DNA from: Candidatus Spongiisociaceae bacterium
GTDB taxonomy: Bacteria; Actinomycetota; Acidimicrobiia; Spongiisociales; Spongiisociaceae
DNA: 64,000 bases
Assembly (NCBI GenBank): GCA_965202665.1
Contig: OZ241841.1
Coordinates: 1,888,001-1,952,000, forward strand
Direction: 5' to 3'
In this document: in pieces, positions 37,486 to 64,000 of the stretch
How positions within the stretch are numbered: position 1 is the first letter of the stretch
How the letters are laid out: every line of letters starts with the position of its first letter
Made by a program: the position numbers and the translations under genes
The notes under the pieces: generated by a model
Told to the model about the DNA's origin: nothing
Seen by the model: only the letters and a program-made list of their open reading frames with translations
The model's database searches: none

Positions 37486-40400
37486 CTGAAACTGGCTGAA
37501 GGGCAATACATCCGCCTGCCTGACGCAGATGAGTTCGTGGTTATCGAAGACGTGATCTCTAAAGACGGTGGTTATAAAATATATGTTAACGATAGTTATG
37601 GCGTGCGTCCGGTTTATATTTCCGCGGAGGATTTAGCGCGGGTGGAAGTGTTGGAAGAGGACGGCGGAGCCGACTCCCGAAAGGTGCTGGCCGCGTTGTG
37701 GTGCGAGTGGATGCGGCAGGTGATGTCGAGGTCCAAGGCGACAGCGCGGGACGTCAGCCCGTTGCGGCCCTATCCCCATCAGAGCCAAGCCGTGTACGGG
37801 TCCATGTTGCCTCAGCCCCTGTTGCGGTTTTTGCTGGCCGACGAGCCGGGCACGGGGAAGACGGTCATGGGCGGCCTTTGGTTGCGCGAGTCGCAACGGC
37901 GCGGCTTCGTCAAACGGGCGCTGGTGGTCGCCCCGGCGCATTTGGTTTCCAAATGGCAGGCGGACATCGCTCGGTTCCTCAACGGCGACCTGCGGCGGAT
38001 CACTATGAGCACGATACGCGAAGGGGGTTTGGCCGGTCCGCACGACTGGTGGATAGTGTCCCTGGATCTGGCGTCCGTCAACCCGGCGGTGTACGAGGCG
38101 ATACATCCGGAGCGGGCGGGATGGGATGCGGTGGTGTTCGACGAAGCCCACCGCCTCACGCCCAACGCGGAACAGTACTACCGGGTGGGTAGCATGCTTT
38201 CCAAAAGCACCTCCCGGACCCTGTTGATGACCGCCACCCCGCACCGGGGGAACGAAGTGCTGTTCCGGTCATTGATGCATTTGGTGGATCCGCAGGTGTT
38301 TCCGGAACCGATGAATCTCAACGCCAAGCATTCCGGGCATCTGAAGCCGGGCCCGCTCCATTTTTTGCGCCGTATGAAAGAAGAACTGTATGACTATGAC
38401 GGTGAAACTCGCCTGTTCAAAGCCCGCGAGGCCCGCAACGTCAATGTGCCGCTCAATGTGAACGAGCGCGCTTTCTACAACGAGGCGTTGGATTTGGTTG
38501 ATGAATACTTTCCGCCCGACGCGGTGGTTTTGGCGAAAATGGTGTACGGCAAACGAGCCGCCTCATCCCTCTTTGCGTTGCGGCGGACGCTGGAAAGGCG
38601 TCGCGACGGCATGGGTCGGGAAAACCCGACGGATGCCGCCATATCCGCTGATCCCTACGATCAAGATAAAACGGAACAGGACGAAGCCAGGGTGGTGACC
38701 GAAGTTTCGAAGGCGAGTCGGGAAGAGAAGCAAGCGATTGATGATATTTTGGAAAGGCTGGCCGGGGTTGTAGAAGACGCCGACTTGCAAGTTTCGAAAT
38801 GGCCGCAAATGGTTGAAAAATGTTTGGCCCCTCACCATATTAGCCCCGGTTCGGACAAGCAAGCCGTCGTTTTTACCGAGTTTGCCGACACGGCCAACTG
38901 GCTGGTAGACCGGTTTGAGAGCAACGGCTACACCGCCCGTCGCTACTCAGGCGCAGACACCTATCGCGAGCGGGACGAGATACGGGCCAGGTTTGCCGCT
39001 GGGGAATTCCAGGTGATTGTTTCCACCGATGCCGGAAACGAAGGCATCGACTTGCAGACGGCGCAGGTGCTGGTGAACTGGGATATGCCCTGGTCACTAG
39101 TGCGGCTGGAGCAACGGATGGGACGCATTCACCGTATAGGCCAAAAGGACAAAGTGTGGCTTTACAACCTGGTAGCCACCGACACCCGTGAAGGAGATGC
39201 TTATTTCAAACTGCTGGAAAATCTTGTAGCGGCCGCCAACGAGTTGGACGGCAAAATGTTCGACAGCCTGAGTATGGTATGCGAGGCGGCTTTGGAAAAA
39301 GCGACGGGTGTTAAGAGCTTGGAGAAATATTTGAGAAAAATGTACAAGGAAAATCGCTACCCCCCCCCCCATCTACAGAACAGTTGCAACAAATACACAA
39401 AGAACAATGGGAAGGTGACAGTTATTTAGCATCGCAGCTTGATATAGACGAGTCGGTAAGGCAACTATATGCGGAACAGTTAGCGAGAATTAATCCTCAT
39501 ATTGTTGAACGTTTTTTGCACAGGGCGTCGGGTGCCGGTTTATTCGCTATCAATAAAGCGGCTCTAGCAGACAGAGGTTTTTGGTATCTCGCTCCTGGTG
39601 AGCTCAACTTCCCCAAGGGGTTGTCTGTTGAGGCGGAAACGGGTAAGGCGTTAGTTTCGACCAGCGGTCAAGTAAAACAGGAGGCTGTCGATTCGGGCGT
39701 AAGCAGAGCCGCGGATGCGGTGACGCTAGGTCCCGGGGAACCTGTTTTCCAGGATTTGGTTTCTACGGCGGGCGATCATCTCCGTCCGTACCTTTACCAG
39801 GGTGCGCTCCTAACGGATCCGACCACGGTCACCGACTATGAAATACACCTTTTTGAGGCTGAGGTTTCAGAAGGTGGAGGCAGACGGAAAGAAATCTGGT
39901 CTTATCTGGTTCGGGTTGACGAGACGGGTGCCCGTTTTTCTGCTTGGGAGACGCTTTCCAACCTTGAGCCGGGAGATTCGGCGGCGGACAGACCCCATCC
40001 GGCGTTAATAACCGAAGCGGAGCAGGTAGCCCAGGGTGTTCTTTGGGATCAACGGGACAATCACAGGATCGCAATGGAGAAATGGGTAGCCGACGCCCGC
40101 AACAATCTCCGCCGGTTGCCAAATCAACTAACCGACGACATCACCGACCGCGAGCGACGCCTTTCTGAGCGGTCGCGCATCGAACAGGCCATTGAAAACC
40201 GCATTGAGGAACTAGATAAAGCGGTGCAGATAGAGGTAGGGGGACTTTCCCGCATCGGTTGGGCGCGGGTAAAAGGTGCGGGGTCGGTGGATATAGATGA
40301 AAAAAACAGCGAGCAGATCGCGATGCGCCTCGTGGCCGATTCGTTGGAGGCAGAAGGATGGAAGGTAGCGGATGTCCACACCGAGGGGCTCGGCTATGAC

Positions 40401-51704: not shown

Positions 51705-52780
51705 TGTACATGGCCAGTAGGTTGGTTACAGTCTGGAGGTTGGTGGTTTGCCTCCGAGGCTGTAGCGGGGTCGGTGGTTATTGTAGTAGTGGAGCCAGTG
51801 GCGGAGGGCTTGGTTTCGGGTTTGGTTGTCGGGCCAGGGTTGGGAGTTGGCCCATTCGCGTTTGAGGGTTTGGTTGTATCGCTCCACTTTGCCGTTCTGC
51901 TGGGGATGATACGGTCTGATCGTGATATGACGGATGTCGTGTTGGGAGAGCAGGGAAGCGAATAGGCGGCTGCGGGTGTAGCTCCAGTGGTTGTCGGTCA
52001 TGATCTCCGCGATGTGGGTTATGCCTAGTTGGTGGAAGTGGTGGAGGGCGCGGGCGGTGAACGCGGCGACGGTGGTTCCTTTCTCGTCTGATAGCGTTTC
52101 GGAGTAGGCGAGGCGGGTGTAGTCGTCCACGATGGAGTGCACAAAGGTCCATCCCGCTCCGCTGGCGGGGGCGTTGCCCCGGCCGTGTACCTTCCATCCC
52201 CCGCCGGGGGGTATGGAAGAAAGCTTCTTAACGTCCATATGCAGCAACTCACCAGGCCGTTCCCGTTCATACCGCACCACCGGCCCGGGAGGGGTTTTGA
52301 GCGGTTCGCCGGTCAGCTGGTCGCATTCCCACAGACGCAACATCCCGTGGCGGCGGAGGATGCGGCTGATCGTCCGCTCCGGCACCCCCGTAAACGCCGA
52401 CAATCGAGCGGGCCCCGCCCGCAACCGCCGCCGCGCCCGCAGCACCAGCTCTTCCACCTCCGGGCTGGTACGCATAGGGGAGCAGCGCGGCCGAGACGAC
52501 CGGTCTTCCAAACCGGCCTCGCCTTCCTCCCGGTAGCGGCGCACCCACTTGGACACGCACTGCCGAGACAGGCCCATTCCCCGAGCCACCCGCGCTACTG
52601 GTTCCCCTTCTTCTATTACCCGCAACACCATCCCCAAACGTCCCAAAGGCGACGACCTCGCGTTACCATGCATCCCTGAAGACCTCCTCCCGTGCTATAG
52701 GGTGCTTTCACTCCCCATAACACCAGGAGGTCTTCACTTATGCAACAACCAAACCGTCACCAACGTCCTGGCCAAGTACA
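51705..52780 (-). mobile_element. IS481-family insertion sequence (1076 bp) with 6-bp target duplication CCTAGC
   Basis: TGT..ACA ends; imperfect 25-bp inverted repeats tgtacatggccagtaggttggttac / tgtacttggccaggacgttggtgac; cctagc at 51699-51704 and 52781-52786. Confidence 0.95.
51726..52673 (-). CDS. IS481-family DDE transposase
   Basis: MHGNAR, DRSSRP, PGELLHMDVKKL, IVDDYTR, MTDN, PQQNGKVERYN. Confidence 0.95.
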   Translation of the reverse strand: MHGNARSSPLGRLGMVLRVIEEGEPVARVARGMGLSRQCVSKWVRRYREEGEAGLEDRSSRPRCSPMRTSPEVEELVLRARRRLRAGPARLSAFTGVPERTISRILRRHGMLRLWECDQLTGEPLKTPPGPVVRYERERPGELLHMDVKKLSSIPPGGGWKVHGRGNAPASGAGWTFVHSIVDDYTRLAYSETLSDEKGTTVAAFTARALHHFHQLGITHIAEIMTDNHWSYTRSRLFASLLSQHDIRHITIRPYHPQQNGKVERYNQTLKREWANSQPWPDNQTRNQALRHWLHYYNNHRPRYSLGGKPPTSRL

Positions 52781-54249
52781 CCTAGCACCAGGGTGCTCAA
52801 TTCCCGCAAGGCCGTCGCCAACGATTGGTCCAGCCAGTCGCAGAGGTCCTGGGTCCGGTTCTCGACCTCCTTGTCGTGTGAGAAGGAAAAGGCGTCCCAT
52901 GAGGTTTCTACAAAATCCTTTGCGACGCCATAGTCAGTTCCCTGGGTTCGATATTGGATGCGCCCGAATGAGGTAACGGCCATCACGCCTGTTCGGGGGT
53001 TGCCCACATGGTGGATGGAAACCACGAACTGCAATCGGAATCCGTTGATTTCCACCTGTAGCGTTTGCCACCATTTGTCAGAGGACAGATCGGCGTAGTG
53101 CCCCGATTGTTTGGCGGTTTTGATTATTTGCCTACGCCACAGATACGCATTATCGCTGTCCGGTTCGGCCGCACGAGCGTCGATTTTGATTTCACGTCCT
53201 TGTTCTTTGAAACTCGCTTCCAGGTCGTCGCTTGCTTCTTTTATCCATGCTTGGATACGGGCATGCATTTCTTGCGCGCGTATGCGTACTCCGAGTTTTC
53301 TCTGCTCGGTTTTTGCTTTTTCTTTCTGATGCCAGGCTAGGGCGAAAGCGCGTATTGCTTCTTTGGCGGTTTGCGGCGCAGGAGCGGGTATGGGTTTCTC
53401 CAGCTCGCCGCGTATCGAACGAATAGCAAATTTGGCGAACAACCGGCTGAAAGGGGCTAAATCCCCACTGTTGGCGGTATCCAGGGCATTTAGATATCGA
53501 TCCCTATCCAAGCGGCCCACTACTATCGGCGGGTAGTGCTCTCTTTCTAGAGGGAGAAGTGCCAATGCCCGCGCCACTCGGCCGTTTCCGTCCTGAAAAG
53601 GGTGTATTTGCACGAATCGGTGGTGAAGCCATGATGCGGAGACGATGGGGTGCGCCTTGTTAGCCATTTCTCCATATAGTTGAATCAGGCTATCTATTTC
53701 TCCCGTGACCTGTTCCGGGGGCGCGAACTCCAATATTGAGCCATCGGCCAGTTTCACATTGTTTGGCCAGTTTTTGAAGGAACCGTGGTTGAGCTTGCTT
53801 TTGACATTACGACCCAACGAATCGGTGGCGTCATACGCATCTTGAGTGCTTGTGATTAAGGCGTGCAGTTCCTTGATGAAAGAGGAGGACAGCAACCGGT
53901 CATCTCGCACGAACTCGATTACTAACTTCAGTCCATCCAGTTGGGCTTGGATGGTCGCCAAAACTCCGTCTGAAATATCTTGTCCGGAACGGAAAACCAC
54001 CTCTTTGGTGAGGCCTTCCGCCACCAAGTTCTCTGTGAGTCCCCAGTCAAGGTCGTACAGCCTTTCCAGGATGCCGGTTTCGATGGCCTGTTTGCGGAGA
54101 GTACGTTGGCGCAGGGTCGTTTTGTCGGCTTCGTCCAAGCTGGCGGTGAACTCCCTCCACCGGCTGTGCAGGATATCCACCGCCGTCAGGTCGCGGCGCA
54201 ACCTCTCTTCCACGGCGGGGTCGAGAGGCTGTATCGGGCTCCAGGTCAT
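52738..54249 (-). CDS. Fic-domain protein with C-terminal extension
   Basis: Canonical HPFQDGNGRVAR motif; last codons supplied by the IS481 end. Confidence 0.9.
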   Translation of the reverse strand: MTWSPIQPLDPAVEERLRRDLTAVDILHSRWREFTASLDEADKTTLRQRTLRKQAIETGILERLYDLDWGLTENLVAEGLTKEVVFRSGQDISDGVLATIQAQLDGLKLVIEFVRDDRLLSSSFIKELHALITSTQDAYDATDSLGRNVKSKLNHGSFKNWPNNVKLADGSILEFAPPEQVTGEIDSLIQLYGEMANKAHPIVSASWLHHRFVQIHPFQDGNGRVARALALLPLEREHYPPIVVGRLDRDRYLNALDTANSGDLAPFSRLFAKFAIRSIRGELEKPIPAPAPQTAKEAIRAFALAWHQKEKAKTEQRKLGVRIRAQEMHARIQAWIKEASDDLEASFKEQGREIKIDARAAEPDSDNAYLWRRQIIKTAKQSGHYADLSSDKWWQTLQVEINGFRLQFVVSIHHVGNPRTGVMAVTSFGRIQYRTQGTDYGVAKDFVETSWDAFSFSHDKEVENRTQDLCDWLDQSLATALRELSTLVLGVLGQDVGDGLVVA

Positions 54250-54271
54250 GATCCCGCCGGAGGCGATCTGG

Positions 54272-54508
54272 TCAGGGGGCGGTGGGACCTGTTTGGTCTT
54301 GGCTCGTCGGGTTCTTGACGGGGACGGGCTGGCCGCCGAGGGCCTTGCGGAAATCCTCTCCCAGGGCCTCCCAGTCGGACTTCCAAGCGTTGGCGGTTTC
54401 CAAGGCCGAAAGGTTGTAATGGTCGTAGTGGCCGAACAGGTCAAAGGTTCTCGCTACCCCGTCCCAAAAGGAGGGTATGTCCTTGATCAGTTTAGTGCTG
54501 AGTCGCAT
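54272..54508 (-). CDS. Small hypothetical protein, copy 2
   Basis: MRLSTKLIKDIPSFWDGVARTFDLFGHYDHYNLSALETANAWKSDWEALGEDFRK. Confidence 0.7.
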   Translation of the reverse strand: MRLSTKLIKDIPSFWDGVARTFDLFGHYDHYNLSALETANAWKSDWEALGEDFRKALGGQPVPVKNPTSQDQTGPTAP

Positions 54509-54604: not shown

Positions 54605-55447
54605 TCAGGGGGCGGTTAGGCTTTCGTAGGCGTCGGGGCGGCGGTCTCGGTAGAAGGCCCACACTTTGCGCACCTCGTCGATCATGTCCATGTCCAGGTC
54701 ACGCACCACCAACTCCTCTTCGGTGTCGGAGGCGGGGTCGCCCACCAGTTGCCCGCGGGGATTCACGAAATAGGAGGAGCCGTAGAAATCGTTTTCCCCG
54801 TAGGGCTCGGTTCCCACCCGGTTGATGGCCCCGATGAAAAACTCGTTGGCCACCGCCGAGGCGGGTTGCTCCAGGTTCCACAGGTACATGGACAGGCCCC
54901 GGCTGGTGGCCGACGGGTTGAACACCAGTTTGGCCCCCGCCAAGCCCAGGGCCCGCCACCCTTCCGGGAAATGGCGGTCGTAGCAGATGTAGACACCGAT
55001 GCGCCCCGCCGCGGTGTCGAACACCGGATAGCCCAGGTTGCCGGGGCGGAAATAAAACTTCTCCCAGAAGCCGGGCAGGTGCGGGATGTGGGTTTTGCGG
55101 TACTTGCCCAGATAGGCGCCGTCGGCGTCGATCACCGCCGCCGTGTTGTATAAGAACCCGTCGTCCTCTTTTTCGTAGACGGGGACCACCAGCACCATCT
55201 CCGTCTCCTTGGCGGCTTGGATCATCCGCTGCACGGTGGGGCCGTCCGGCACTCGCTCGGCGGTGTCCTTATGATCGTCGTCCTGCACCTGGCAGAAGTA
55301 GGGGCCGTTGAACAGCTCCTGGAAGCACATCACCCGGGCCCCCTGCTCGGCCGCCCGGCGGGCGAAGCCGACGCTCTTGTCCACCATCGTTTCCAAGTCG
55401 CCGGTCCACGCCGTTTGGACGATGGCCGCCCGGATGATGTTCGCCAT
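54605..55447 (-). CDS. Nitrilase-family carbon-nitrogen hydrolase (probable beta-ureidopropionase)
   Basis: CFQELF, KYRKTHIP, ICYDRHFPE catalytic triad; pyrimidine-cluster context. Confidence 0.9.
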   Translation of the reverse strand: MANIIRAAIVQTAWTGDLETMVDKSVGFARRAAEQGARVMCFQELFNGPYFCQVQDDDHKDTAERVPDGPTVQRMIQAAKETEMVLVVPVYEKEDDGFLYNTAAVIDADGAYLGKYRKTHIPHLPGFWEKFYFRPGNLGYPVFDTAAGRIGVYICYDRHFPEGWRALGLAGAKLVFNPSATSRGLSMYLWNLEQPASAVANEFFIGAINRVGTEPYGENDFYGSSYFVNPRGQLVGDPASDTEEELVVRDLDMDMIDEVRKVWAFYRDRRPDAYESLTAP

Positions 55448-55528
55448 AGGTTCTCCTCTCGGTCCGCGGCCCGCGCCCGAGCCGCTTGCCTCCGTCTTGC
55501 GTCCGCCGCGCCCCCGCGGCCCGGCGGT

Positions 55529-56632
55529 TTATTCGCCGCCGGGGTTGAGGGCGACGGTGGTGCGTTGCCAGCCGGAGCCGACCGTGTCCAAGCCGTCGTC
55601 GTTGAGGGCGTTGACCGCGTTTTGGGCGAAGTCGGTGCGGTAGGCGCCTGCGCCGGGATCGGCCGAGATCACGTTTTGGCCGGTGGCCACTTCGATGGTC
55701 TGCCTCCACAGGTTGGCGTCCATCACGCCGATCCCGTTCGGGGAGGGCCAGATCAGGCCGTTGATTTCGTTCATCTGCCAGGTCTGATGGCTGCGTCCCA
55801 AAGTGGGGCCGGCCGCCAACACGATGTCCACGCACGAATCCGGGTTGTCCCGGCAGTGGATCCAGCCGCGGAAACTGGCCCGCAGGAAAGCCTCTACGGT
55901 GTCGGAGTTGTTCGCCGCGTACTCCTCGGTCACCCAGATGGCGTCCTGCAACATGGCGGTGGCGATGGACGGATCGTTGAAGTCGATCACGTTCAGGTCG
56001 CTCGGCTGGTACAACTCGCCGGTGTCCGGGTTGGTGGCTTCCAGCACCTGGGCGTACTCGTTGTAGATCATCGCCTCGGCGGCGTCGATATCCCGGTTGA
56101 GCAGGGCCTCCATGTCGAAGCTCTGGGCGACCAGTTCCACATCCGGCACGTTGAACTTCTCGATGGCGGCCGTCAACTCGAACTCGTTGCCGAAGCCCCA
56201 GTTGCCGACCGTGCGGCCCGCCCAGTCGGCGGGGGAGGTGATGCCCGAGTCGGCCCAGGACACCATCAGCGTCCCCGACCGTTGGAACACCTGGCCCACG
56301 TTGACCAGCCCCGCCCCCTCCTGGTTGGAAACCAAAGCTTTGGGAACCCAGGCCAGGCCGAACTGGGCCCCGCCGGTGGCCACCACCTGCTGGGGAACGA
56401 TCTCCACCGCCCCCTCCAGGATGGTTACGTCCAAGCCCTCGTCGGCGTAGAAGCCCTGGTCGACGGCGGCGTAATACCCGGCGAACTGGGCCTGCGCCAC
56501 CCACTGCAACTGCAGGTTGATGGGGGTCAGCTCGACGGGGGCCGGCTCATCGTCTCCTCCGCAGGCCGCGGCCAGCAAAGCCAGGGCCGCCGCCACCGCC
56601 GCCAACTTAGTGAACATTTTTCCGCGCAACAT
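55529..56632 (-). CDS. ABC transporter substrate-binding lipoprotein (NMT1/THI5-like)
   Basis: LAAAC lipobox, LQLQWVAQAQFAGYYAA, AMIYNE. Confidence 0.9.
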   Translation of the reverse strand: MLRGKMFTKLAAVAAALALLAAACGGDDEPAPVELTPINLQLQWVAQAQFAGYYAAVDQGFYADEGLDVTILEGAVEIVPQQVVATGGAQFGLAWVPKALVSNQEGAGLVNVGQVFQRSGTLMVSWADSGITSPADWAGRTVGNWGFGNEFELTAAIEKFNVPDVELVAQSFDMEALLNRDIDAAEAMIYNEYAQVLEATNPDTGELYQPSDLNVIDFNDPSIATAMLQDAIWVTEEYAANNSDTVEAFLRASFRGWIHCRDNPDSCVDIVLAAGPTLGRSHQTWQMNEINGLIWPSPNGIGVMDANLWRQTIEVATGQNVISADPGAGAYRTDFAQNAVNALNDDGLDTVGSGWQRTTVALNPGGE

Positions 56633-56715
56633 TTCTTCCTCCTTGCGTTCGCCCCTATGCAATTGGGTGAATAATACCCCCCGTTTCCGGCCGGGGAGGC
56701 CGAAAACCGGAATTT

Positions 56716-57486
56716 TTAGGCTTTGCGCACCGAAACGTGCCAAGGGATGGCCCGGCGCTCCGCCCAGGAGGCCAGCAGGTAAAGCAGAATGCCGAAGGCG
56801 GAAGCCAGCACGATGGCCGCCCAGGCCTCCTCGAACTGGAGCAAGCCGGCTTTGGTGGTGATGTACTGGCCGAGACGGGCCTGGGGCCCGCCGAAAAATT
56901 CTTTGACGATGGCCCCGATCAGGCTGAGGGCGGTGGCCACTTTCAACGCCGAAAACAGGTAGGGGCCGGAGTTGGGGACCTGCAGTTTCCACAGCACCGC
57001 CCCCCGCCGGGCGGCGTAGGAGTCCATCAACTCCAACTCGGAAGCCCCGGCGGACAGCAGCCCCCGCACCATGTTGATCATCACCGGGAAAAACACCAGG
57101 ACGGCCACCACGAAAATGCCCCCCGCCGGGCTGAGTATCCCGAACCAGGAGTTGGCGATGGGGGCCAGCACGATGATGGGGGTGGAGTTGGCGGCGATGG
57201 CGAACGGCACCGCCCCCTCCCGTACGAAACGCCAGCGGGCGGCGGCCAGGGACACCAGGGCGGCGGCGGCGGCTCCGACCGCCAACCCGGCCACGGCCGT
57301 GAAAAAAGTGCCCCACCCGGCCGACAGCAGGTCGCTTCTTTCCGTTCCGAAAGCGGCGGCGATGGCGGTGGGGGCGGGGAGGATGAAGCCTTTGATGTTG
57401 AAAATGCGCACCAGCGACTCCCAGGCGGCCAAGCCCCCGGCGAACAGGGCGATGGCCGGACCCCACCGGCGCAGTCGCCCGTTCAC
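56716..57486 (-). CDS. ABC transporter permease (TauC/SsuC-like)
   Basis: ILPAP, PIIVLAP, FFPVMIN, LIGAIVKEF. Confidence 0.9.
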   Translation of the reverse strand: MNGRLRRWGPAIALFAGGLAAWESLVRIFNIKGFILPAPTAIAAAFGTERSDLLSAGWGTFFTAVAGLAVGAAAAALVSLAAARWRFVREGAVPFAIAANSTPIIVLAPIANSWFGILSPAGGIFVVAVLVFFPVMINMVRGLLSAGASELELMDSYAARRGAVLWKLQVPNSGPYLFSALKVATALSLIGAIVKEFFGGPQARLGQYITTKAGLLQFEEAWAAIVLASAFGILLYLLASWAERRAIPWHVSVRKA

Positions 57487-58280
57487 ACCGCCTCCACCGC
57501 CCGCAACCCCTCCCGCACTTCGGTCAGCAACTCGAAGAAACGCTGTTCGGCGCGGGTGTCCGAAGTGCGGGGCTGGGGCAGGTCCATTTCCACCACCCGG
57601 GTGATGCGGCCCGGACGGGGGGACATGATCACCACGCGGTTGGACAGAAACACCGCCTCCGGGATGGAATGGGTGACGAAAAGGACCGTGGTGCCGGTAT
57701 CCGACCAGATGCGCAGCAACTCGGCTTGCATCCGCTCCCGGGTCATCTCGTCCAACGCCCCGAAAGGCTCGTCCATTAAAAGGAGCGACGGCTCAAAGGC
57801 CAAAGCCCGGGCGATGGACACCCGTTGCTGCATGCCGCCCGACAGTTGCCACGGATAATGGTCGGCGAACTCCTCCAAACCCACCAGTTGCAGCATATCC
57901 TCCGCCCGCGCCCGCCGCTCCGCCCGGCCCATTTCCATAATCTCCAGCGGCAGTTCCACGTTGGCCCTGACTTTCCGCCACTCCAGCAGGGTGGACGACT
58001 GGAACACCATCCCGTAGTCCCGGTCGGTGCGGGCCGCGGCGGGAGGTTTGCCGTTCACGGTCACCGTCCCGCCGGTGGGGGACAGCAGATCCCCCACCAG
58101 CCGCAACAGGGTGGATTTGCCGCACCCGGAGGGGCCGATCAGGGAAACGAACTCGCCCCCGGCGACCTGCAGGTCGATGTCGGCCAAAGCGGGCACTTCC
58201 CGGTCGGAGCCGGGATTGAAAACCATGTCCGCCCCCCGCAGTTGCACCATGTCCGCCCCCCGCAGTTGCTCAGCGCTCAC
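57483..58280 (-). CDS. ABC transporter ATP-binding protein
   Basis: GPSGCGKST, LSGGMQQR, LLMDEPFGALD, FVTHS. Confidence 0.95.
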   Translation of the reverse strand: MSAEQLRGADMVQLRGADMVFNPGSDREVPALADIDLQVAGGEFVSLIGPSGCGKSTLLRLVGDLLSPTGGTVTVNGKPPAAARTDRDYGMVFQSSTLLEWRKVRANVELPLEIMEMGRAERRARAEDMLQLVGLEEFADHYPWQLSGGMQQRVSIARALAFEPSLLLMDEPFGALDEMTRERMQAELLRIWSDTGTTVLFVTHSIPEAVFLSNRVVIMSPRPGRITRVVEMDLPQPRTSDTRAEQRFFELLTEVREGLRAVEAV

Positions 58281-59176
58281 AACGCCGCCTCTCCGGTCGG
58301 GGCGGACGGGCGGGCGCCGCCGGCTTCGTCCACCCGCAACGAGGCGGGCACCACCGACCGTTCAATCAGGGCCACTATCGCCACGAAAGTTATTCCCAGC
58401 AGGGAGGCGACCAAAATGGAGGCGAACAGTTTGGCGGGGGCGGCGGAGAAAGCGGAGGCGAAGTTGAGGATGGCCCGCCCCAGGCCGTCCGGCATGCTGG
58501 CCGGCAGCTCCCCGACGATGGCCCCGATGATGGCCGCGGTGGCCGCGATTTTCAAAGCGGGGAACAGGTAGGGGAGGGCGGCGGGGGCCTGCAGTTTCCA
58601 CAGCACCTGCCGGGGATGGGCGGCGTAGGAAAGCATAAGTTCGGAGGCGGCCGCCGGGGGGGAGCGCAGGCCGCGCAAAGTGTTGATGGCCACCGGGAAA
58701 AAGGCCAAGTAGGCGGAGATCACCGCCACCACCAGCCAGCGGGGGACGCTGATCCGTCCCGCCCACACCACCAGGATGGGGGCGATGGCCAGGATGGGGA
58801 TGGTCTGGGAGGCCACCACGTAGGGCATCAGGCCCCGCTCCGCCAAAGAGGAACGGACGAACAGCACCCCCAGGCCGAAGCCGATCGCCGACCCGAACAG
58901 GAACCCGACCAGGGCCGAGCGCCAAGTGAACAGGGCCGCCCGCAACAAAACCCACAGCAACATTTCCCCTCCCCGGCGGGCGGGGCGGAACAGTGCCCAT
59001 ACCACGTCCCAGATGTGGGGCATGGAACGTTCGTTGGTGCGCACCGGCAGGTCCACCGAGGTCCCCGGCCAAACCCCGCCGGTGGCCGTTCCCATCCACT
59101 TGTATCCCTCCCAGAGCAAAGCCAACGCCGCCAGGATGCCCAGAAAGGCCAGCGTCCGCCGCAGGGCCGGGGTCAC
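58277..59176 (-). CDS. ABC transporter permease (TauC/SsuC-like)
   Basis: SQTIPILAIAP, FFPVAIN, LPYLF, IIGAIVGE. Confidence 0.9.
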   Translation of the reverse strand: MTPALRRTLAFLGILAALALLWEGYKWMGTATGGVWPGTSVDLPVRTNERSMPHIWDVVWALFRPARRGGEMLLWVLLRAALFTWRSALVGFLFGSAIGFGLGVLFVRSSLAERGLMPYVVASQTIPILAIAPILVVWAGRISVPRWLVVAVISAYLAFFPVAINTLRGLRSPPAAASELMLSYAAHPRQVLWKLQAPAALPYLFPALKIAATAAIIGAIVGELPASMPDGLGRAILNFASAFSAAPAKLFASILVASLLGITFVAIVALIERSVVPASLRVDEAGGARPSAPTGEAAL

Positions 59177-59346
59177 CGCGTTCCGCTTTCACAGCCGGGG
59201 GAGCGCCCGCCCCGGGCCGGGCGGCGGCGGGCGGCGGGCGGGAGAGCGGGAAATTTCATAGAGGCCATCTTATCGCCCGCTCGCCCGGCGGGGCGGGGAA
59301 TCAGGCCCGTCCGCTTATCGCCCGCGGGGCGGTGGGGCGGATTGAC

Positions 59347-59374
59347 TTGACAAAACGGGGGGGGGGGGTAGCGT
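59347..59374 (+). promoter_or_regulatory. Sigma70-type promoter with G12 spacer
   Basis: TTGACA-aaac-G12-TAGCGT, 16-bp spacer. Confidence 0.8.
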
Positions 59375-59452
59375 TTTGGAGCGCAGTTGTCGGATTGCCC
59401 GTCGGCGGTTGCGAATTGGTAAAGATTTCGGGCGTAGGAGCAAGGAGGCGTC

Positions 59453-62400
59453 GTGGTGATAGCGCGGCTGTTGGATCGGGTTTGGTTGGTGGGTTTGTTG
59501 GTGCTGGGTTTGGTGGCCGCTTTGCTGGGGGTGGCTCCTCCGGAGGCGGCGGGGACGCATGGGGAGGAGGATATTGATTTCGCTCCCATGTATTCGGCGT
59601 GCGTGGGGGCGGCGACGGAGTCTGCGGGTTTTGAGGACACGGCGGACATCGGCGCGGAGGATGCTATTAATTGTTTGTTCCATTATGGGATCACCACCGG
59701 CCGGTCGGAGACCATGTACGCGCCGGGGGATTCGGTGTTGCGGTGGCAGATGGCCCTGTTTTTAGCGCGGGCGGCTGCGGCGGCGGGGATTGTGTTGGAG
59801 AACCCGGCGGAGGATCAGGGGTTTACGGATGTGGGGGCGGTGTCGGAGGAGGCCCGCAACGCGATCAACGGTTTAGCCAAGGCGGGGATCATGCCCGGCA
59901 CGTCGGCGACGACGTTCTCACCTAACTCGTCGGTGAACCGGGGGTCCATGGCCATGTTGCTGGACGCTTTCCTTTCTAAGGCCACGCCGGGGACGGGGGC
60001 GTTCGGAGAATCTGCGGAGAAGTATGCGGATGTGAAGGCCGACAATTTTAATGTGTTTACGGATGTGAGCACGGTGTCGTTGAACACATATAACGCGATT
60101 TACCGTATTTACGAGCTGGGGGTGACCAAGGGCGTGGGGGATCATCAGTTCAACCCGGCCGGGCTGGTGACGCGGGGGCAGATGGCGTCGTTCATCACTC
60201 GGGCGTTTGCGCATACCAGGGCCCGTCCGGCGGGGGTGTCCATTCAGAGCGAGTCGGATATGGTGCTTGGTGAATCGAGTGTTCCGTTGATTGTGTCGGT
60301 GCGGGATGTGAACTTCCAGCCCTTGTTGGACCAGTCGGTGGATGTGTTCCGTTCCACGGATCCGGATAACGCGTTCGGGGATGATGGGGCGTGTGTTTCG
60401 GCGAGTGTGGCTCGGGTGGGGCAGGTGGGGCAGACGGCGTGCGAGGTGGATTTGGGGGACAGCACCACCGACGCGGCGGGGGATTTGACCGATTTGTCCT
60501 TGCAGATCACGGATGCGGATGTGTCGGTGTGGGCGTGGACGGGCGACCGGGGCGACAAGTTCGACTCAGATGACACCACCGCCGCGCAGTTGACGGTGGG
60601 GTTCTCCAAGGCGGCCAGCCAGACTTTGGTGACCGACAACTTGGAGGAGGGACAGGAAAGATCCAAGTTTGGGGAAACCGTCACTGTCACCATCCAGATC
60701 GCGGATGAGGATGACAAGGCGGTGGCCAGCAAGGGTCAGCGGGTGACCGTAAGCCAGACGACGCGAGTCGGGGAGACCACCACCTCTTCCAGTAACTCCA
60801 TGGTGACGGATGCGGATGGGAAGATCGTTTTGGAGTTCACTCAGACTGATCCCAATACCAATACGGGGGATGCGGCGAGGGTGACGTTGGAGTTGAGTGT
60901 GCCGTCGGACGGGTTGCCGTTGCAGAATGAGGACGGAAGCGCTTTCGACATGGACGGCAAGACCTATGTCTGGTCGGATGAGGCGCCGGTGCCGAAAGTG
61001 TTGAAGTTGTCGGCTCGGACCAACTTCGGGGAGGCTTCCGATGAGGGTTCGGGGGCCGGTAACACGGTTACGGCCACTTTGACCGACCAGTTCGGGGACC
61101 CGGTGCGGGGCAAGAGGATCAGTTTCCTCTCCGACACCTTTTGCACGCCCAAACAGGGGGAAACCACTTGCTCTGTGACCGGGATCGGGGTTACGGAAAA
61201 CGGCGGCGTGTCAGTGAGGGAGGTTGACGGGGTGCGTGTTTTGACGGGGACCGCCCGGTTTATGCGCACCACCGGACGGGACGGCCGGGCCAACCTCAGT
61301 TATTCCTATGATTCCACCGACAGCACAATCGAAACCATCTGGGCCACCTTCAGCGAGGTGGTGGGAGTGGCGGACTCCGACCCTCTGGCCGAAGGCGACA
61401 CCGCCGATATTTCGCTCACCGCGGATCGTATCTATCACTATTGGGCGGAGGACCCCTCCGGGGCTCCGTTCACCGGGCGCATTCTGGTTAAGGAACCGGA
61501 CAACGATCAGATGGTGGTGTTCGCGGAAGAGAAGCTGATGTTGGTCAAATACGACGCCAACGACCAGTTCGTCGACTTCAACGGGCCCACGGTGATGGCC
61601 GAATTCGAGAAGCCTTTGGCGGAAAACGCCGACCCGGCGGCGGCTCATCTGAAAGTAACCGCCTATCAGGACGAGGCGGGCAAGGTCAGCACCTTCACCT
61701 TGCAACCGGAATGGCCCAGCCTGGATCACCCCGACGGCCAAGAGGCCGGAGGCCCCGCCCGGTTCGGGCAGGTGGTAGCGGCCGACAACGGAGTAGTTGT
61801 GGTCGGAGCCTCTTATGAAAGCGTTGTGGACGACATGGGCACCGCCAACGATCCATCAGATGATGAGACGCGGGCTAATGCGGGGATGGTGTACATCTAC
61901 CCGGGCGGCATCGGCACCGCCGCGGCGGACATCGTCGAAATCAAGCCCCCCACCATCACAGCCAACGGTTACTTCGGGTTTGATGTGGATATCAGCGGCG
62001 ACACCGTGGTGGTCGGAACCCGAGACGGGGCGCTGATGAAGGTCTATGTTTACGTCCGCGGGAGCAGTGGTTGGCCGACCATGCCCACCGCCACTTTTGA
62101 CTCGACCGCTTCCTCGCCCGCCCACCGAGGTTTTGGCGAAGGGGTTGCCATATCCTCCGACGGTTCCACCATCGCGGTGACGGCCCTCTTCCAGTTCAGC
62201 TCCGAAGTATTGATATATGAAAAACCCGGCAACGGCGTTTGGGCGAACGATACCGACAGCACGGACAACGCAAAACTGACACCCGAGTCCGCCGCGGCCG
62301 GTTACAACGACCAGCGGTCGGTGGCTCTTTCCAGGGACGGTTCGACGGTTGCTTGGGGCGGCTGCAACTGGGGAGGTACTCCTGCTTCGTGCCGGGGAGC

Positions 62401-62980
62401 GGTTATGGTGCACACCGAACCGGTCGGGGGCTGGACGGGGAGCGTGACGCACGCCGCGGTTTTGTACGCCAACGGCGGAGCCAAGGTACGGCAGAGTATG
62501 GGCAGATCCGTGGCTATTTCCGATGATGGGTCGACGGTGCTCGCGGGCGGGTCTTTCCAGGCCGGGGTCGGCGAAACCGGGGCCATGTACGTGTTCAGCA
62601 AACCCGACGCAGGTTGGGCGACGTTGGACGAGGACACCACTTCTTCGGCGATATTGACCGCTTCTCCGGGCAGGGCCCGGCCGGTCGAAGCATTGGGCCA
62701 ATACGTTGCGATGTCCAGCGATGGCATGGAGGCGGTGGGTGGACGTCATTTTCGGCAGGAAGGCGACTTCCGGGGCTCGGTGGTGGCGTACCAGCGGCCC
62801 TCCGGCGGGTGGGCCAGCGACAGCAGTCCCGATGGTGAATTCTTGGGTCCCTATGTGAACGCCCGTCTGGGGTGGGCGGTTACCTATGACAAGTCGAACG
62901 GCGATCTGTACTCCGCGATACGCAACGAAACCCTGGTGGACAGTGGCCGGTTGCTGACTGTTTACAAGATCAGCCGTTAA
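59453..62980 (+). CDS. Large secreted S-layer-homology protein with Ig-like middle region and FG-GAP-like propeller repeats
   Basis: Signal peptide; SLH repeats (GITTG..RWQMA, GIMPG..RGSMA, GVTKG..TRGQMA); FGFDVDISGDTVVVG, FGEGVAISSDG, MGRSVAISDDG. Confidence 0.88.
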   Translation: MVIARLLDRVWLVGLLVLGLVAALLGVAPPEAAGTHGEEDIDFAPMYSACVGAATESAGFEDTADIGAEDAINCLFHYGITTGRSETMYAPGDSVLRWQMALFLARAAAAAGIVLENPAEDQGFTDVGAVSEEARNAINGLAKAGIMPGTSATTFSPNSSVNRGSMAMLLDAFLSKATPGTGAFGESAEKYADVKADNFNVFTDVSTVSLNTYNAIYRIYELGVTKGVGDHQFNPAGLVTRGQMASFITRAFAHTRARPAGVSIQSESDMVLGESSVPLIVSVRDVNFQPLLDQSVDVFRSTDPDNAFGDDGACVSASVARVGQVGQTACEVDLGDSTTDAAGDLTDLSLQITDADVSVWAWTGDRGDKFDSDDTTAAQLTVGFSKAASQTLVTDNLEEGQERSKFGETVTVTIQIADEDDKAVASKGQRVTVSQTTRVGETTTSSSNSMVTDADGKIVLEFTQTDPNTNTGDAARVTLELSVPSDGLPLQNEDGSAFDMDGKTYVWSDEAPVPKVLKLSARTNFGEASDEGSGAGNTVTATLTDQFGDPVRGKRISFLSDTFCTPKQGETTCSVTGIGVTENGGVSVREVDGVRVLTGTARFMRTTGRDGRANLSYSYDSTDSTIETIWATFSEVVGVADSDPLAEGDTADISLTADRIYHYWAEDPSGAPFTGRILVKEPDNDQMVVFAEEKLMLVKYDANDQFVDFNGPTVMAEFEKPLAENADPAAAHLKVTAYQDEAGKVSTFTLQPEWPSLDHPDGQEAGGPARFGQVVAADNGVVVVGASYESVVDDMGTANDPSDDETRANAGMVYIYPGGIGTAAADIVEIKPPTITANGYFGFDVDISGDTVVVGTRDGALMKVYVYVRGSSGWPTMPTATFDSTASSPAHRGFGEGVAISSDGSTIAVTALFQFSSEVLIYEKPGNGVWANDTDSTDNAKLTPESAAAGYNDQRSVALSRDGSTVAWGGCNWGGTPASCRGAVMVHTEPVGGWTGSVTHAAVLYANGGAKVRQSMGRSVAISDDGSTVLAGGSFQAGVGETGAMYVFSKPDAGWATLDEDTTSSAILTASPGRARPVEALGQYVAMSSDGMEAVGGRHFRQEGDFRGSVVAYQRPSGGWASDSSPDGEFLGPYVNARLGWAVTYDKSNGDLYSAIRNETLVDSGRLLTVYKISR

Positions 62981-63026
62981 GTCGTTTCACCCAACCCAAC
63001 ACGCCAGGAGGCCTCCCCGCCAAAGT

Positions 63027-63133
63027 GGGGAGGCCCCTGGTTTAAGCCCCTTTGCCGCGACTACGCCTCCGAGATACGAGCCTCCATCGGCCGGAGCCGG
63101 GGAGGCCTTTGGTTTAAGCCCCTTTGCCGCGAC
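63027..63133. repeat. Two ~35-bp direct repeats with hairpin potential between the SLH paralogs
   Basis: ggggaggccYYtggtttaagcccctttgccgcgac at 63027-63061 and 63099-63133. Confidence 0.8.
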
Positions 63134-63198
63134 GGATGCCCAAAAGGACCGGGGTCGCCGCGTTCCACTTTCCCGGCGGGGCGGTGGTGTGGATTGAC

Positions 63199-63226
63199 TT
63201 GACAAATTGGGGGGGGGGGGTAGCGT
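63199..63226 (+). promoter_or_regulatory. Sigma70-type promoter with G12 spacer (second copy)
   Basis: TTGACA-aatt-G12-TAGCGT, 16-bp spacer. Confidence 0.8.
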
Positions 63227-63310
63227 TTTGGATTGTGGAGCCGCGTGCGGCGTTTGTCGTCGCTCGGCGGCCTGCGTGGTAAAAAAATCTGAGTTTAAGG
63301 AGGCTTAGTG

Positions 63311-64000
63311 ATGGCGCGTGTGTTGGGTCGGGTTTGGTTGGTGGGGTTGTTGGTGTTGGGTTTGGTGGTGAGTTTGTTGGGGGTGGCTCCTCCGGAGGGG
63401 GCGTTGGGTGCGCATGGGGAGGAGGACATTGATTTCGCTCCCATGTATTCGGCGTGCGTGGGGGCGGCGACGGAGTCGGCCGGTTTTGAGGACACGGCGG
63501 ACATCGGGGCGGAGGATGCTATTAATTGTTTGTTCCATTATGGGATCACCACGGGTCGGTCGGAGACGATGTACGCTCCGGGGGATTCGGTGTTGCGGTG
63601 GCAGATGGCCCTGTTTTTGGCTCGGGCGGCTGCGGCGGCGGGGATTGTGTTGGAGAACCCGGCGGAGGATCAGGGGTTTACGGATGTGGGCGCGGTGTCG
63701 GAGGAGGCCCGCAACGCGATCAATGGTTTAGCGAAGGCGGGGATCATGCCCGGCACGTCGGCGACGACGTTCTCACCGAATTCGTCGGTGAATCGGGGTT
63801 CCATGGCGATGTTGCTGGACGCGTTTTTGGCGCAGGCCACGCCGGGGGCGGGGGCGTTCGGTGAAGCGGCGGAGAAGTATGCGGATGTGAAGGCGGACAA
63901 TTTTAATGTGTTTACGGATGTGAGCACGGTGTCGTTGAACACCTATAACGCGATTTACCGTATTTATGAGTTGGGGGTGACGAAGGGGGTGGGGGAGCAT
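63311..64000 (+). CDS. Second SLH surface-protein paralog (5' part, runs off window)
   Basis: AAGGAGG RBS; open to the window end; near-identical to the first ~230 aa of the 59453 gene. Confidence 0.9.
   Translation, partial: MARVLGRVWLVGLLVLGLVVSLLGVAPPEGALGAHGEEDIDFAPMYSACVGAATESAGFEDTADIGAEDAINCLFHYGITTGRSETMYAPGDSVLRWQMALFLARAAAAAGIVLENPAEDQGFTDVGAVSEEARNAINGLAKAGIMPGTSATTFSPNSSVNRGSMAMLLDAFLAQATPGAGAFGEAAEKYADVKADNFNVFTDVSTVSLNTYNAIYRIYELGVTKGVGEH

Follow-up and report, generated by a model that had tools for sequence, protein, structure and literature searches.

Two neighbouring genes at the 3′ end of a 64,000-nucleotide (nt) stretch of a Candidatus Spongiisociaceae genome (the window, by which we mean this whole stretch) encode large proteins with SLH anchoring domains, and each is preceded by a likely promoter in which a run of 12 guanines (G12) lies between the -35 and -10 hexamers. 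We consider it probable that these promoters belong to a system of slipped-strand phase variation of the porA/vlp type, acting through the poly-G promoter spacer of a library of SLH-anchored surface proteins. Replication slippage in tracts of G11-13 likely resets the -35/-10 spacer among 15, 16 and 17-18 base pairs (bp), and the length of the spacer likely sets transcription at random, gene by gene, with sigma-A as the factor that would use the hexamers. The genome with the window (G000) is a single contig (C1) of 2.77 Mb with 64% G+C and is 94% complete; it was compared to the one same-genus genome in our sample (G001), to a sister genus, g4 (G004, G009 and G013), and to G002, a one-contig member of the same family from another genus. 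The elements of the two window promoters are as follows.

59347..59352, + strand: -35 hexamer TTGACA of promoter 1, read from the sequence and preceded by GGATTGAC; its role is suggested by the genome-wide spacer peak
59357..59368, + strand: G12 tract, spacer of promoter 1, read from the sequence (G11 in run X3)
59369..59374, + strand: likely -10 hexamer TAGCGT (TAnnnT) of promoter 1; TA...T is kept in variant copies
63199..63204, + strand: -35 hexamer TTGACA of promoter 2, read from the sequence
63209..63220, + strand: G12 tract, spacer of promoter 2, read from the sequence
63221..63226, + strand: likely -10 hexamer TAGCGT of promoter 2, read from the sequence

Both genes carry the arrangement TTGACA-N4-G12-TAGCGT with a 16-bp spacer, as an earlier sequence-only reading of this DNA had described, and the motif occurs twice in the window compared to 0 copies in 100 shuffles. 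That reading had also noted a conserved promoter core with divergent 5′ untranslated regions (UTRs), and our alignments agree: the two promoter blocks are 92% alike over 60 nt, while the 5′ UTRs align poorly. No structure stood out in the folded 5′ UTR of gene 1 (z +1.2), and that of gene 2 was scarcely more informative (z -2.1). Among other copies of the promoter the -10 hexamer varies (TAGGGT, TAAGAT, TATGAT, TAGGAT and TAAAGT) in its middle bases, with the T, the A and the final T kept, and in both window promoters the homopolymer is located between hexamers that fit the TTGACA-17/18-TAnnnT pattern of the genome. A doubled TTGA(C/T)TTGACA is conserved upstream of the tract; the upstream TTGACT was considered as an alternative -35 hexamer and rejected, since its spacer would be 21 bp.

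Genome-wide, the pattern TTGACA-N4/5-G11-13-(T)-TAnnnT defines 24 tract promoters in G000, 22 of which precede large SLH-domain proteins: 9 stand before members of the window's family, with its N-terminal SLH domain, and 13 before C-terminal-SLH proteins of 1840-4500 amino acids (aa). The remaining two are found at a C-terminal-SLH-type start where no long open reading frame was picked and before an unrelated 512-aa frame. Of the 14 members of the window's family that were aligned, 5 have no tract. The tandem array proposed earlier thus holds as a pair of neighbouring paralogs and not as the whole system, given the 24 promoters across the genome; inspection of the sequence beyond the window found no third tandem copy, and the array ends after gene 2. 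A search for the strict motif across 185,579 species genomes returned 42 loci, 32 of them in the Candidatus Spongiisociaceae genome and 10 in 9 others. Among 40 relatives searched, it was present in G001 (40 sites), G004 (3) and G009 (2) and was not found in the other 37, and JGI metagenomes yielded 0 promoter-motif matches and 1 weak protein relative, hence no further orthologous loci.

Some side observations concern the promoter module itself. The ten single matches in 9 unrelated genomes (L023, L035, L029, L045, L051-L053, L059, L061 and L064) include several that precede secreted-looking frames. At G000:C1:846205 on the minus strand (L022), a non-SLH frame with a DPPF motif, which we take to be methyltransferase-like, has a complete poly-G promoter in front of it, and the module may have been captured by this other gene. 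C12-13 runs lie just upstream of three genes for giant SLH proteins (G000:C1:1172644, 1652180 and 2390131; 10,398, 8,080 and 12,727 aa), and two of the three look by eye like poly-C promoter spacers, which would be a third build.

The distribution of spacer lengths suggests which of them is active. Tract-less TTGACA..TAnnnT pairs outside genes in G000 mostly have spacers of 17 bp (21 pairs) or 18 bp (20), with 9 pairs at 19 bp, 6 at 16 bp, 1 at 15 bp and 1-7 elsewhere. The tract promoters of the same genome have 15 bp in 8 cases, 16 bp in 11 and 17 bp in 5, and the 40 tract promoters of G001 are similarly distributed (19 at 15 bp, 15 at 16 bp, 2 at 17 bp, 3 at 18 bp and 1 at 19 bp). Spacers of 15-16 bp are thus present in 19/24 tract promoters compared to 7/48 tract-less pairs (Fisher p 1e-7, a value that is overstated since the paralogues are kin). 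Single-base additions beside the tract, an A before it or a T after it, shift the spacer too. Judged from these sequence comparisons, 15 bp is likely the off state and 17-18 bp the high state, and the 16-bp spacer of the window (G12) may be an intermediate state of low or medium output. The sequence-only reading held that G13 would restore an optimal 17 bp; spacers of 17-18 bp are indeed usual in this genome, and G12 may be intermediate rather than off.

In the sister genus g4, the regions of high-scoring homologues revealed a differently built promoter: a G10-16 tract accompanies 20 of the 29 homologue starts, at 2 the run is located in another position, and 7 are without one. The 5′ edge of the g4 tract is at a TTGC/TTGAC hexamer, and 6-10 nt separate its 3′ edge from a TATAAT-like hexamer, which gives spacers of 17 bp (2), 18 bp (1), 19 bp (5), 20 bp (8), 21 bp (3) and 22 bp (1), so that 17 of 20 lie at 19-22 bp, and g4 copies without a tract have 17-18 bp by eye. 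Most g4 copies would therefore be off-optimum on the long side, whereas the copies in G000 and G001 appear to be so on the short side.

We analyzed whether such tracts stand out in the genome and whether their length changes. Runs of G or C in G000 number 96 at length 8, 1 at length 9, 0 at length 10, 66 at lengths 11-13 and 9 at greater lengths, compared to extrapolated numbers of 10.7 at length 9, 1.2 at length 10 and <0.2 at 11-13. Exact G12 runs number 28 in G000, 30 in G001, 13-19 in g4 and 0-6 in other family members, and all 16 genomes searched from other families have none; exact G9 runs number 1 in G000 and 0 in G001. About one third of the 75 long tracts in G000 are promoter spacers of surface proteins. 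Tract length differs in 8 of 15 close paralogue pairs (<=8 differences in 70 flanking nt), one of these 8 having 0 differences in the flanks. MutS had no match in the 94%-complete G000, and NucS, which is not known to mend slips, is present; without MutS, slips would persist.

The window was also compared to 20 listed sequencing runs, all as contigs and none of them RNA. At least half of the window's words were present in 10 of these runs, and the labelled ones are sponge and marine metagenomes, in agreement with the earlier suggestion of a host-associated actinobacterium; the family Candidatus Spongiisociaceae belongs to the Acidimicrobiia. Tract lengths were compared in the contigs of four runs from four studies (X1, X3, X5 and X11), and the small-share runs X17-X20 were left out. 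In X3, which belongs to a different study than the best-matching run X1, a 277-nt contig over 59112-59389 is one G short (G11) at promoter 1, and both X3 contigs at this tract are without that G, at one locus in one of the four runs compared. The first 14 nt 3′ of the promoter 1 tract are unique in G000 and provide a locus-specific flank. In X1, X5 and X11, the long contigs end within the tract; the shorter forms in these runs may stem from paralogues and were not counted for promoter 1. The heterogeneity in tract length that had been anticipated is thus seen between samples (G11 in X3 and G12 in the window), and forms within the same population are not separable from paralogues in contigs.

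Type ISP restriction-modification genes, SNF2-type helicases and a DUF1156 gene contain tracts as well, and others stand beside hsdM (type I) genes; restriction-modification and helicase genes are usual contingency genes. In some of these cases the frame ends directly behind the tract; the +/-1 frame test is confounded by long antisense frames in this G+C-rich DNA, and only Pfam-supported cases were taken. Within the window, a 630-aa SNF2-type helicase frame has a C11 run (39360-39370) at its 3′ end, where one more base would give 1069 open codons compared to 651; the run is probably a frameshift switch that at present stands in its short state. The tandem type ISP restriction-modification genes L065/L066 (G000:C1:1215758-1232124) contain 11 G11-13 runs at matching places between the copies, some of which end the frame, and are candidates for phase-variable specificity or methylation.

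Several observations weigh against slippage-driven switching through spacer length. The promoter tracts of G000 span only 11-13, and two tract-less paralogues (C1:915815 and 1775999) have fixed 16-bp spacers, so that the switch may be graded, with G12 already an active state. The X3 contig extends 21 nt past the tract, less than the 31-nt bridging rule, and its depth is 30.9 compared to 61.9 for its neighbour. The g4 loci were picked by protein score and their -35 hexamers placed by a rule devised for this analysis, and the TGn before the -10 hexamer in 18 of 20 g4 promoters could loosen the dependence on spacing. Furthermore, TAGCGT has only 3 of 6 positions in common with TATAAT, and a strict sigma-70 promoter scan found 0 promoters. 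The narrow tract lengths and the fixed spacers, together with the failure to find MutS and the fact that the paralogues are not independent, would suit a neutral passenger, that is, a G-rich spacer that was copied with the duplicated promoter and whose run drifts at 11-13 under a polymerase that tolerates 15-17 bp, with hardly any change in expression. We regard this as unlikely, since a 15-bp spacer is nearly missing among ordinary promoters (1 site), the g4 promoter carries a tract as well despite its different build, other tracts are found in restriction-modification genes, and the SLH homologues of G002 have a tract at 0 of 3 starts in a genome with no G12 run.

The weakness of the -10 hexamer by E. 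coli rules and the conserved doubled TTGA(C/T)TTGACA would also be compatible with a tract that acts otherwise than through spacer length, be it as a regulator site, as a G-quadruplex-type block, through start-site choice or reiterative transcription, or with another sigma factor or -10 element. The opc tract is described as acting most likely via regulator binding, and the tpr tracts as located immediately 5′ of the start site (PMC7864442). We give this explanation a slightly smaller chance still, because the TA...T is kept across copies and genera while the middle bases vary, the spacers flank the 17-18 bp norm from below in the genus of G000 and G001 (g1) and from above in g4, and the single-base additions beside the tract likewise shift the spacer. 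Long-read homopolymer errors could in principle produce both the 11/12/13 differences and the bias toward short spacers; the tract-rich genomes are all near-complete assemblies, and no library type is listed for the runs. Such an artefact seems very improbable, however, as forms of the promoter core that are shorter and forms of the same length both occur among the contigs of the four runs, the spacers are biased in opposite directions in the two genera (short in g1, long in g4), and G002, which is also in one contig, has no tracts.

The products of the two window genes were investigated using Pfam, structure modelling and Foldseek, and their features are as follows.

59442..59448, + strand: ribosome-binding site AAGGAGG of gene 1, read from the sequence
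59453..62980, + strand: gene 1, 1175 aa, with a signal-like hydrophobic N-terminus (by eye), SLH domain, Ig-like stalk and FG-GAP beta-propeller
59558..60217, + strand: SLH anchoring domain of gene 1 (approximate; Pfam SLH E 1.9e-22, helical in the model)
61730..62977, + strand: variable head of gene 1, a predicted integrin-alpha-like beta-propeller (approximate; Pfam FG-GAP_2, Foldseek)
63003..63041, + strand: G+C-rich terminator-like hairpin 3′ of gene 1 (-36.6 kcal/mol, z -4.6, 0/200 shuffles)
63308..64000, + strand: 5′ part of gene 2 (whole gene 1222 aa, with the architecture of gene 1), 72% identical to gene 1

Pfam matched FG-GAP_2 on the gene 1 protein with E values of 2.7e-9 and 2.9e-12 in two scans, and Big_1 below the cut-off. 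A structure model from 43 homologues (mean pLDDT 80.8, pTM 0.64) is laid out as a helical N-terminal domain followed by beta-sandwich domains and a repeat-strand C-terminal domain. For this model, Foldseek gave integrin heads as the best compact hits (4wk0_A, TM(target) 0.63, 14% identity); the remaining top rows, with low TM, were generic propellers and complement-type beta-sandwich chains. The family profile matches the SLH structures of Bacillus anthracis Sap (E 3e-7), and its PDB coverage is confined to positions 32-210 of 1156, with no homology of the profile to a known S-layer crystallisation domain among the PDB matches. SLH anchoring requires a polysaccharide pyruvyl-transferase, and a gene of this kind (CsaB family type) is present in the genome, as expected for SLH-anchored wall proteins. 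We read the window proteins as wall-anchored and adhesin-like, with a predicted SLH anchor, Ig stalk and integrin-like propeller; their earlier description as S-layer paralogs was not supported, because nothing indicates a lattice.

A hairpin related to that of gene 1 is also found 3′ of gene 2 (z -2.8). A scan for terminators with a T-tail gave 3 terminator-like sites, none of them at the hairpin after gene 1. Because of this strong hairpin and the related one after gene 2, each window gene is likely its own transcription unit of promoter, gene and terminator. The tail of the hairpin is duplicated over 35 nt, at 63027-63061 and 63099-63133 of the window, with the copies 94% alike.

The SLH-coding parts had been described as almost identical. 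Over the 196 codons inside the window this is true of the protein (97% alike) and less so of the DNA (94%, with a synonymous divergence, dS, of 0.24). Identity between the two genes is 82-96% over the first 430 codons and drops to about 55-78% (DNA) in the head. Recent gene conversion between them was considered and rejected, given a dS of 0.24 in the SLH part and 0.88 in the head, and positive selection on the head was not supported (dN/dS of about 0.47 region-wide). In two other family members (C1:1460564 and 2094072), the N-terminus falls in one clade and the middle in the window's clade, with 100% bootstrap each, and in AU tests each region (N-terminal, middle or head) rejects the trees of the other two (p <=0.018). 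These discordant trees and their mutual rejection lead us to conclude from the sequences that domain swapping has happened and that 2 of 14 family members are recombinant chimeras. The earlier proposal of recombinational swapping of passenger domains thus stands for the family, whereas the window pair has undergone no recent homogenisation. Two inverted members of the family at G000:C1:1775999-1783931 (L078) are identical for about 500 codons and then diverge, one of them being without start and promoter, and a similar back-to-back family copy is found in G001 (L080).

A wider proposal, to which we would give a little less than an even chance, is that Ca. Spongiisociaceae switch their coat combinatorially, in the manner of pathogens: a mostly silent library of 20-40 SLH proteins, whose heads are integrin-like or of other kinds, would have a poly-G rheostat on each gene, built twice in mirror image (too short or too long being off) with the usual tract length beside the active one, and with shuffling of the heads. 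Already on the main reading, a cell would express few SLH-anchored proteins, most being low or silent, and lineages within one sponge would differ in their outer coat, with possible consequences for how they adhere to sponge cells or evade them, or for phage receptors; slower recombination between paralogues would renew the heads.

The mechanism itself is already known; the host setting, the scale and the mirror-image designs are new as far as the literature was searched. The closest parallel is Mycoplasma hyorhinis vlp, a multigene surface family with its own transcript for each gene, in which homopolymer insertions or deletions in the -35/-10 spacer of every member switch expression ON or OFF (PMC10502178, PMC2268961). 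The window genes likewise share the promoter and N-terminus, differ in the distal part and have one transcript per gene, as judged from promoter and hairpin. They differ in that the tract is poly-G rather than poly-A, that SLH-anchored proteins of 1200-4500 aa take the place of small lipoproteins, and that 24-40 promoters are spread across the chromosome of a sponge symbiont rather than a pathogen; their function is a predicted one. Poly-G spacers are also described for Neisseria meningitidis porA and Treponema pallidum tp0126, with the best output at 17 bp (PMC7864442). Those are single outer-membrane-protein genes of Gram-negative pathogens, whereas here several protein families share one promoter build, most copies of which lie away from the optimum. 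Within Actinomycetota, M. tuberculosis is a documented case of homopolymer phase variation, where, among other examples, a poly-A located upstream changes the transcription of espA (PMC10334774).

The spacer tracts can further be set against three other systems. In the poly-G phasome of Campylobacter jejuni most switches work by frameshift within modifying enzymes, in contrast to the genome here, in which about a third of the long tracts are spacers in promoters of the very surface proteins. That phasome reportedly counts about 29 G/C tracts, located in genes for surface features and for restriction-modification (PMC4965091, PMC4889913). Bacillus anthracis Sap/EA1 share the N-terminal SLH domain, and the pyruvyl-transferase gene is in the genome here, but the likeness ends with the SLH part, the rest being a predicted Ig stalk and integrin-like propeller. 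Campylobacter fetus sap genes have conserved 5′ anchors and recombining variable 3′ parts, served by one promoter that is moved by inversion; the window genes resemble them in the conserved 5′ and variable 3′ parts, and they are no silent cassettes, as each has a full promoter, ribosome-binding site and start as well as its own hairpin.

Slippage phase variation of surface proteins is textbook knowledge in pathogens that face antibodies. Its scale in an uncultured actinobacterial symbiont of sponges suggests that the symbiont surface is under strong fluctuating selection without adaptive immunity, by phagocytes or receptors, phages or host switching, and, if true, stochastic surface variation would be a core trait of a mutualist whose host has no adaptive immunity. 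No report of poly-G coat switching in sponge symbionts was found in the literature searched, which held few subscription papers and no supplements, and the accessible text of a 2025 review (PMC11868660) contains no word starting with 'symbio'. Short-read assemblies break at the tracts, which may explain why the system was missed. If the spacer acts as a ruler, the tract lengths of the 24 promoters would predict which surface proteins a population makes.

Upstream of the two genes, on the minus strand, the window contains a divergent operon at 54605-59176 with an ABC permease, an ATPase, more transporter parts and a CN-hydrolase, presumably for pyrimidine uptake and breakdown, and, at 51726-54444, an IS481-family transposase and a Fic-domain protein.

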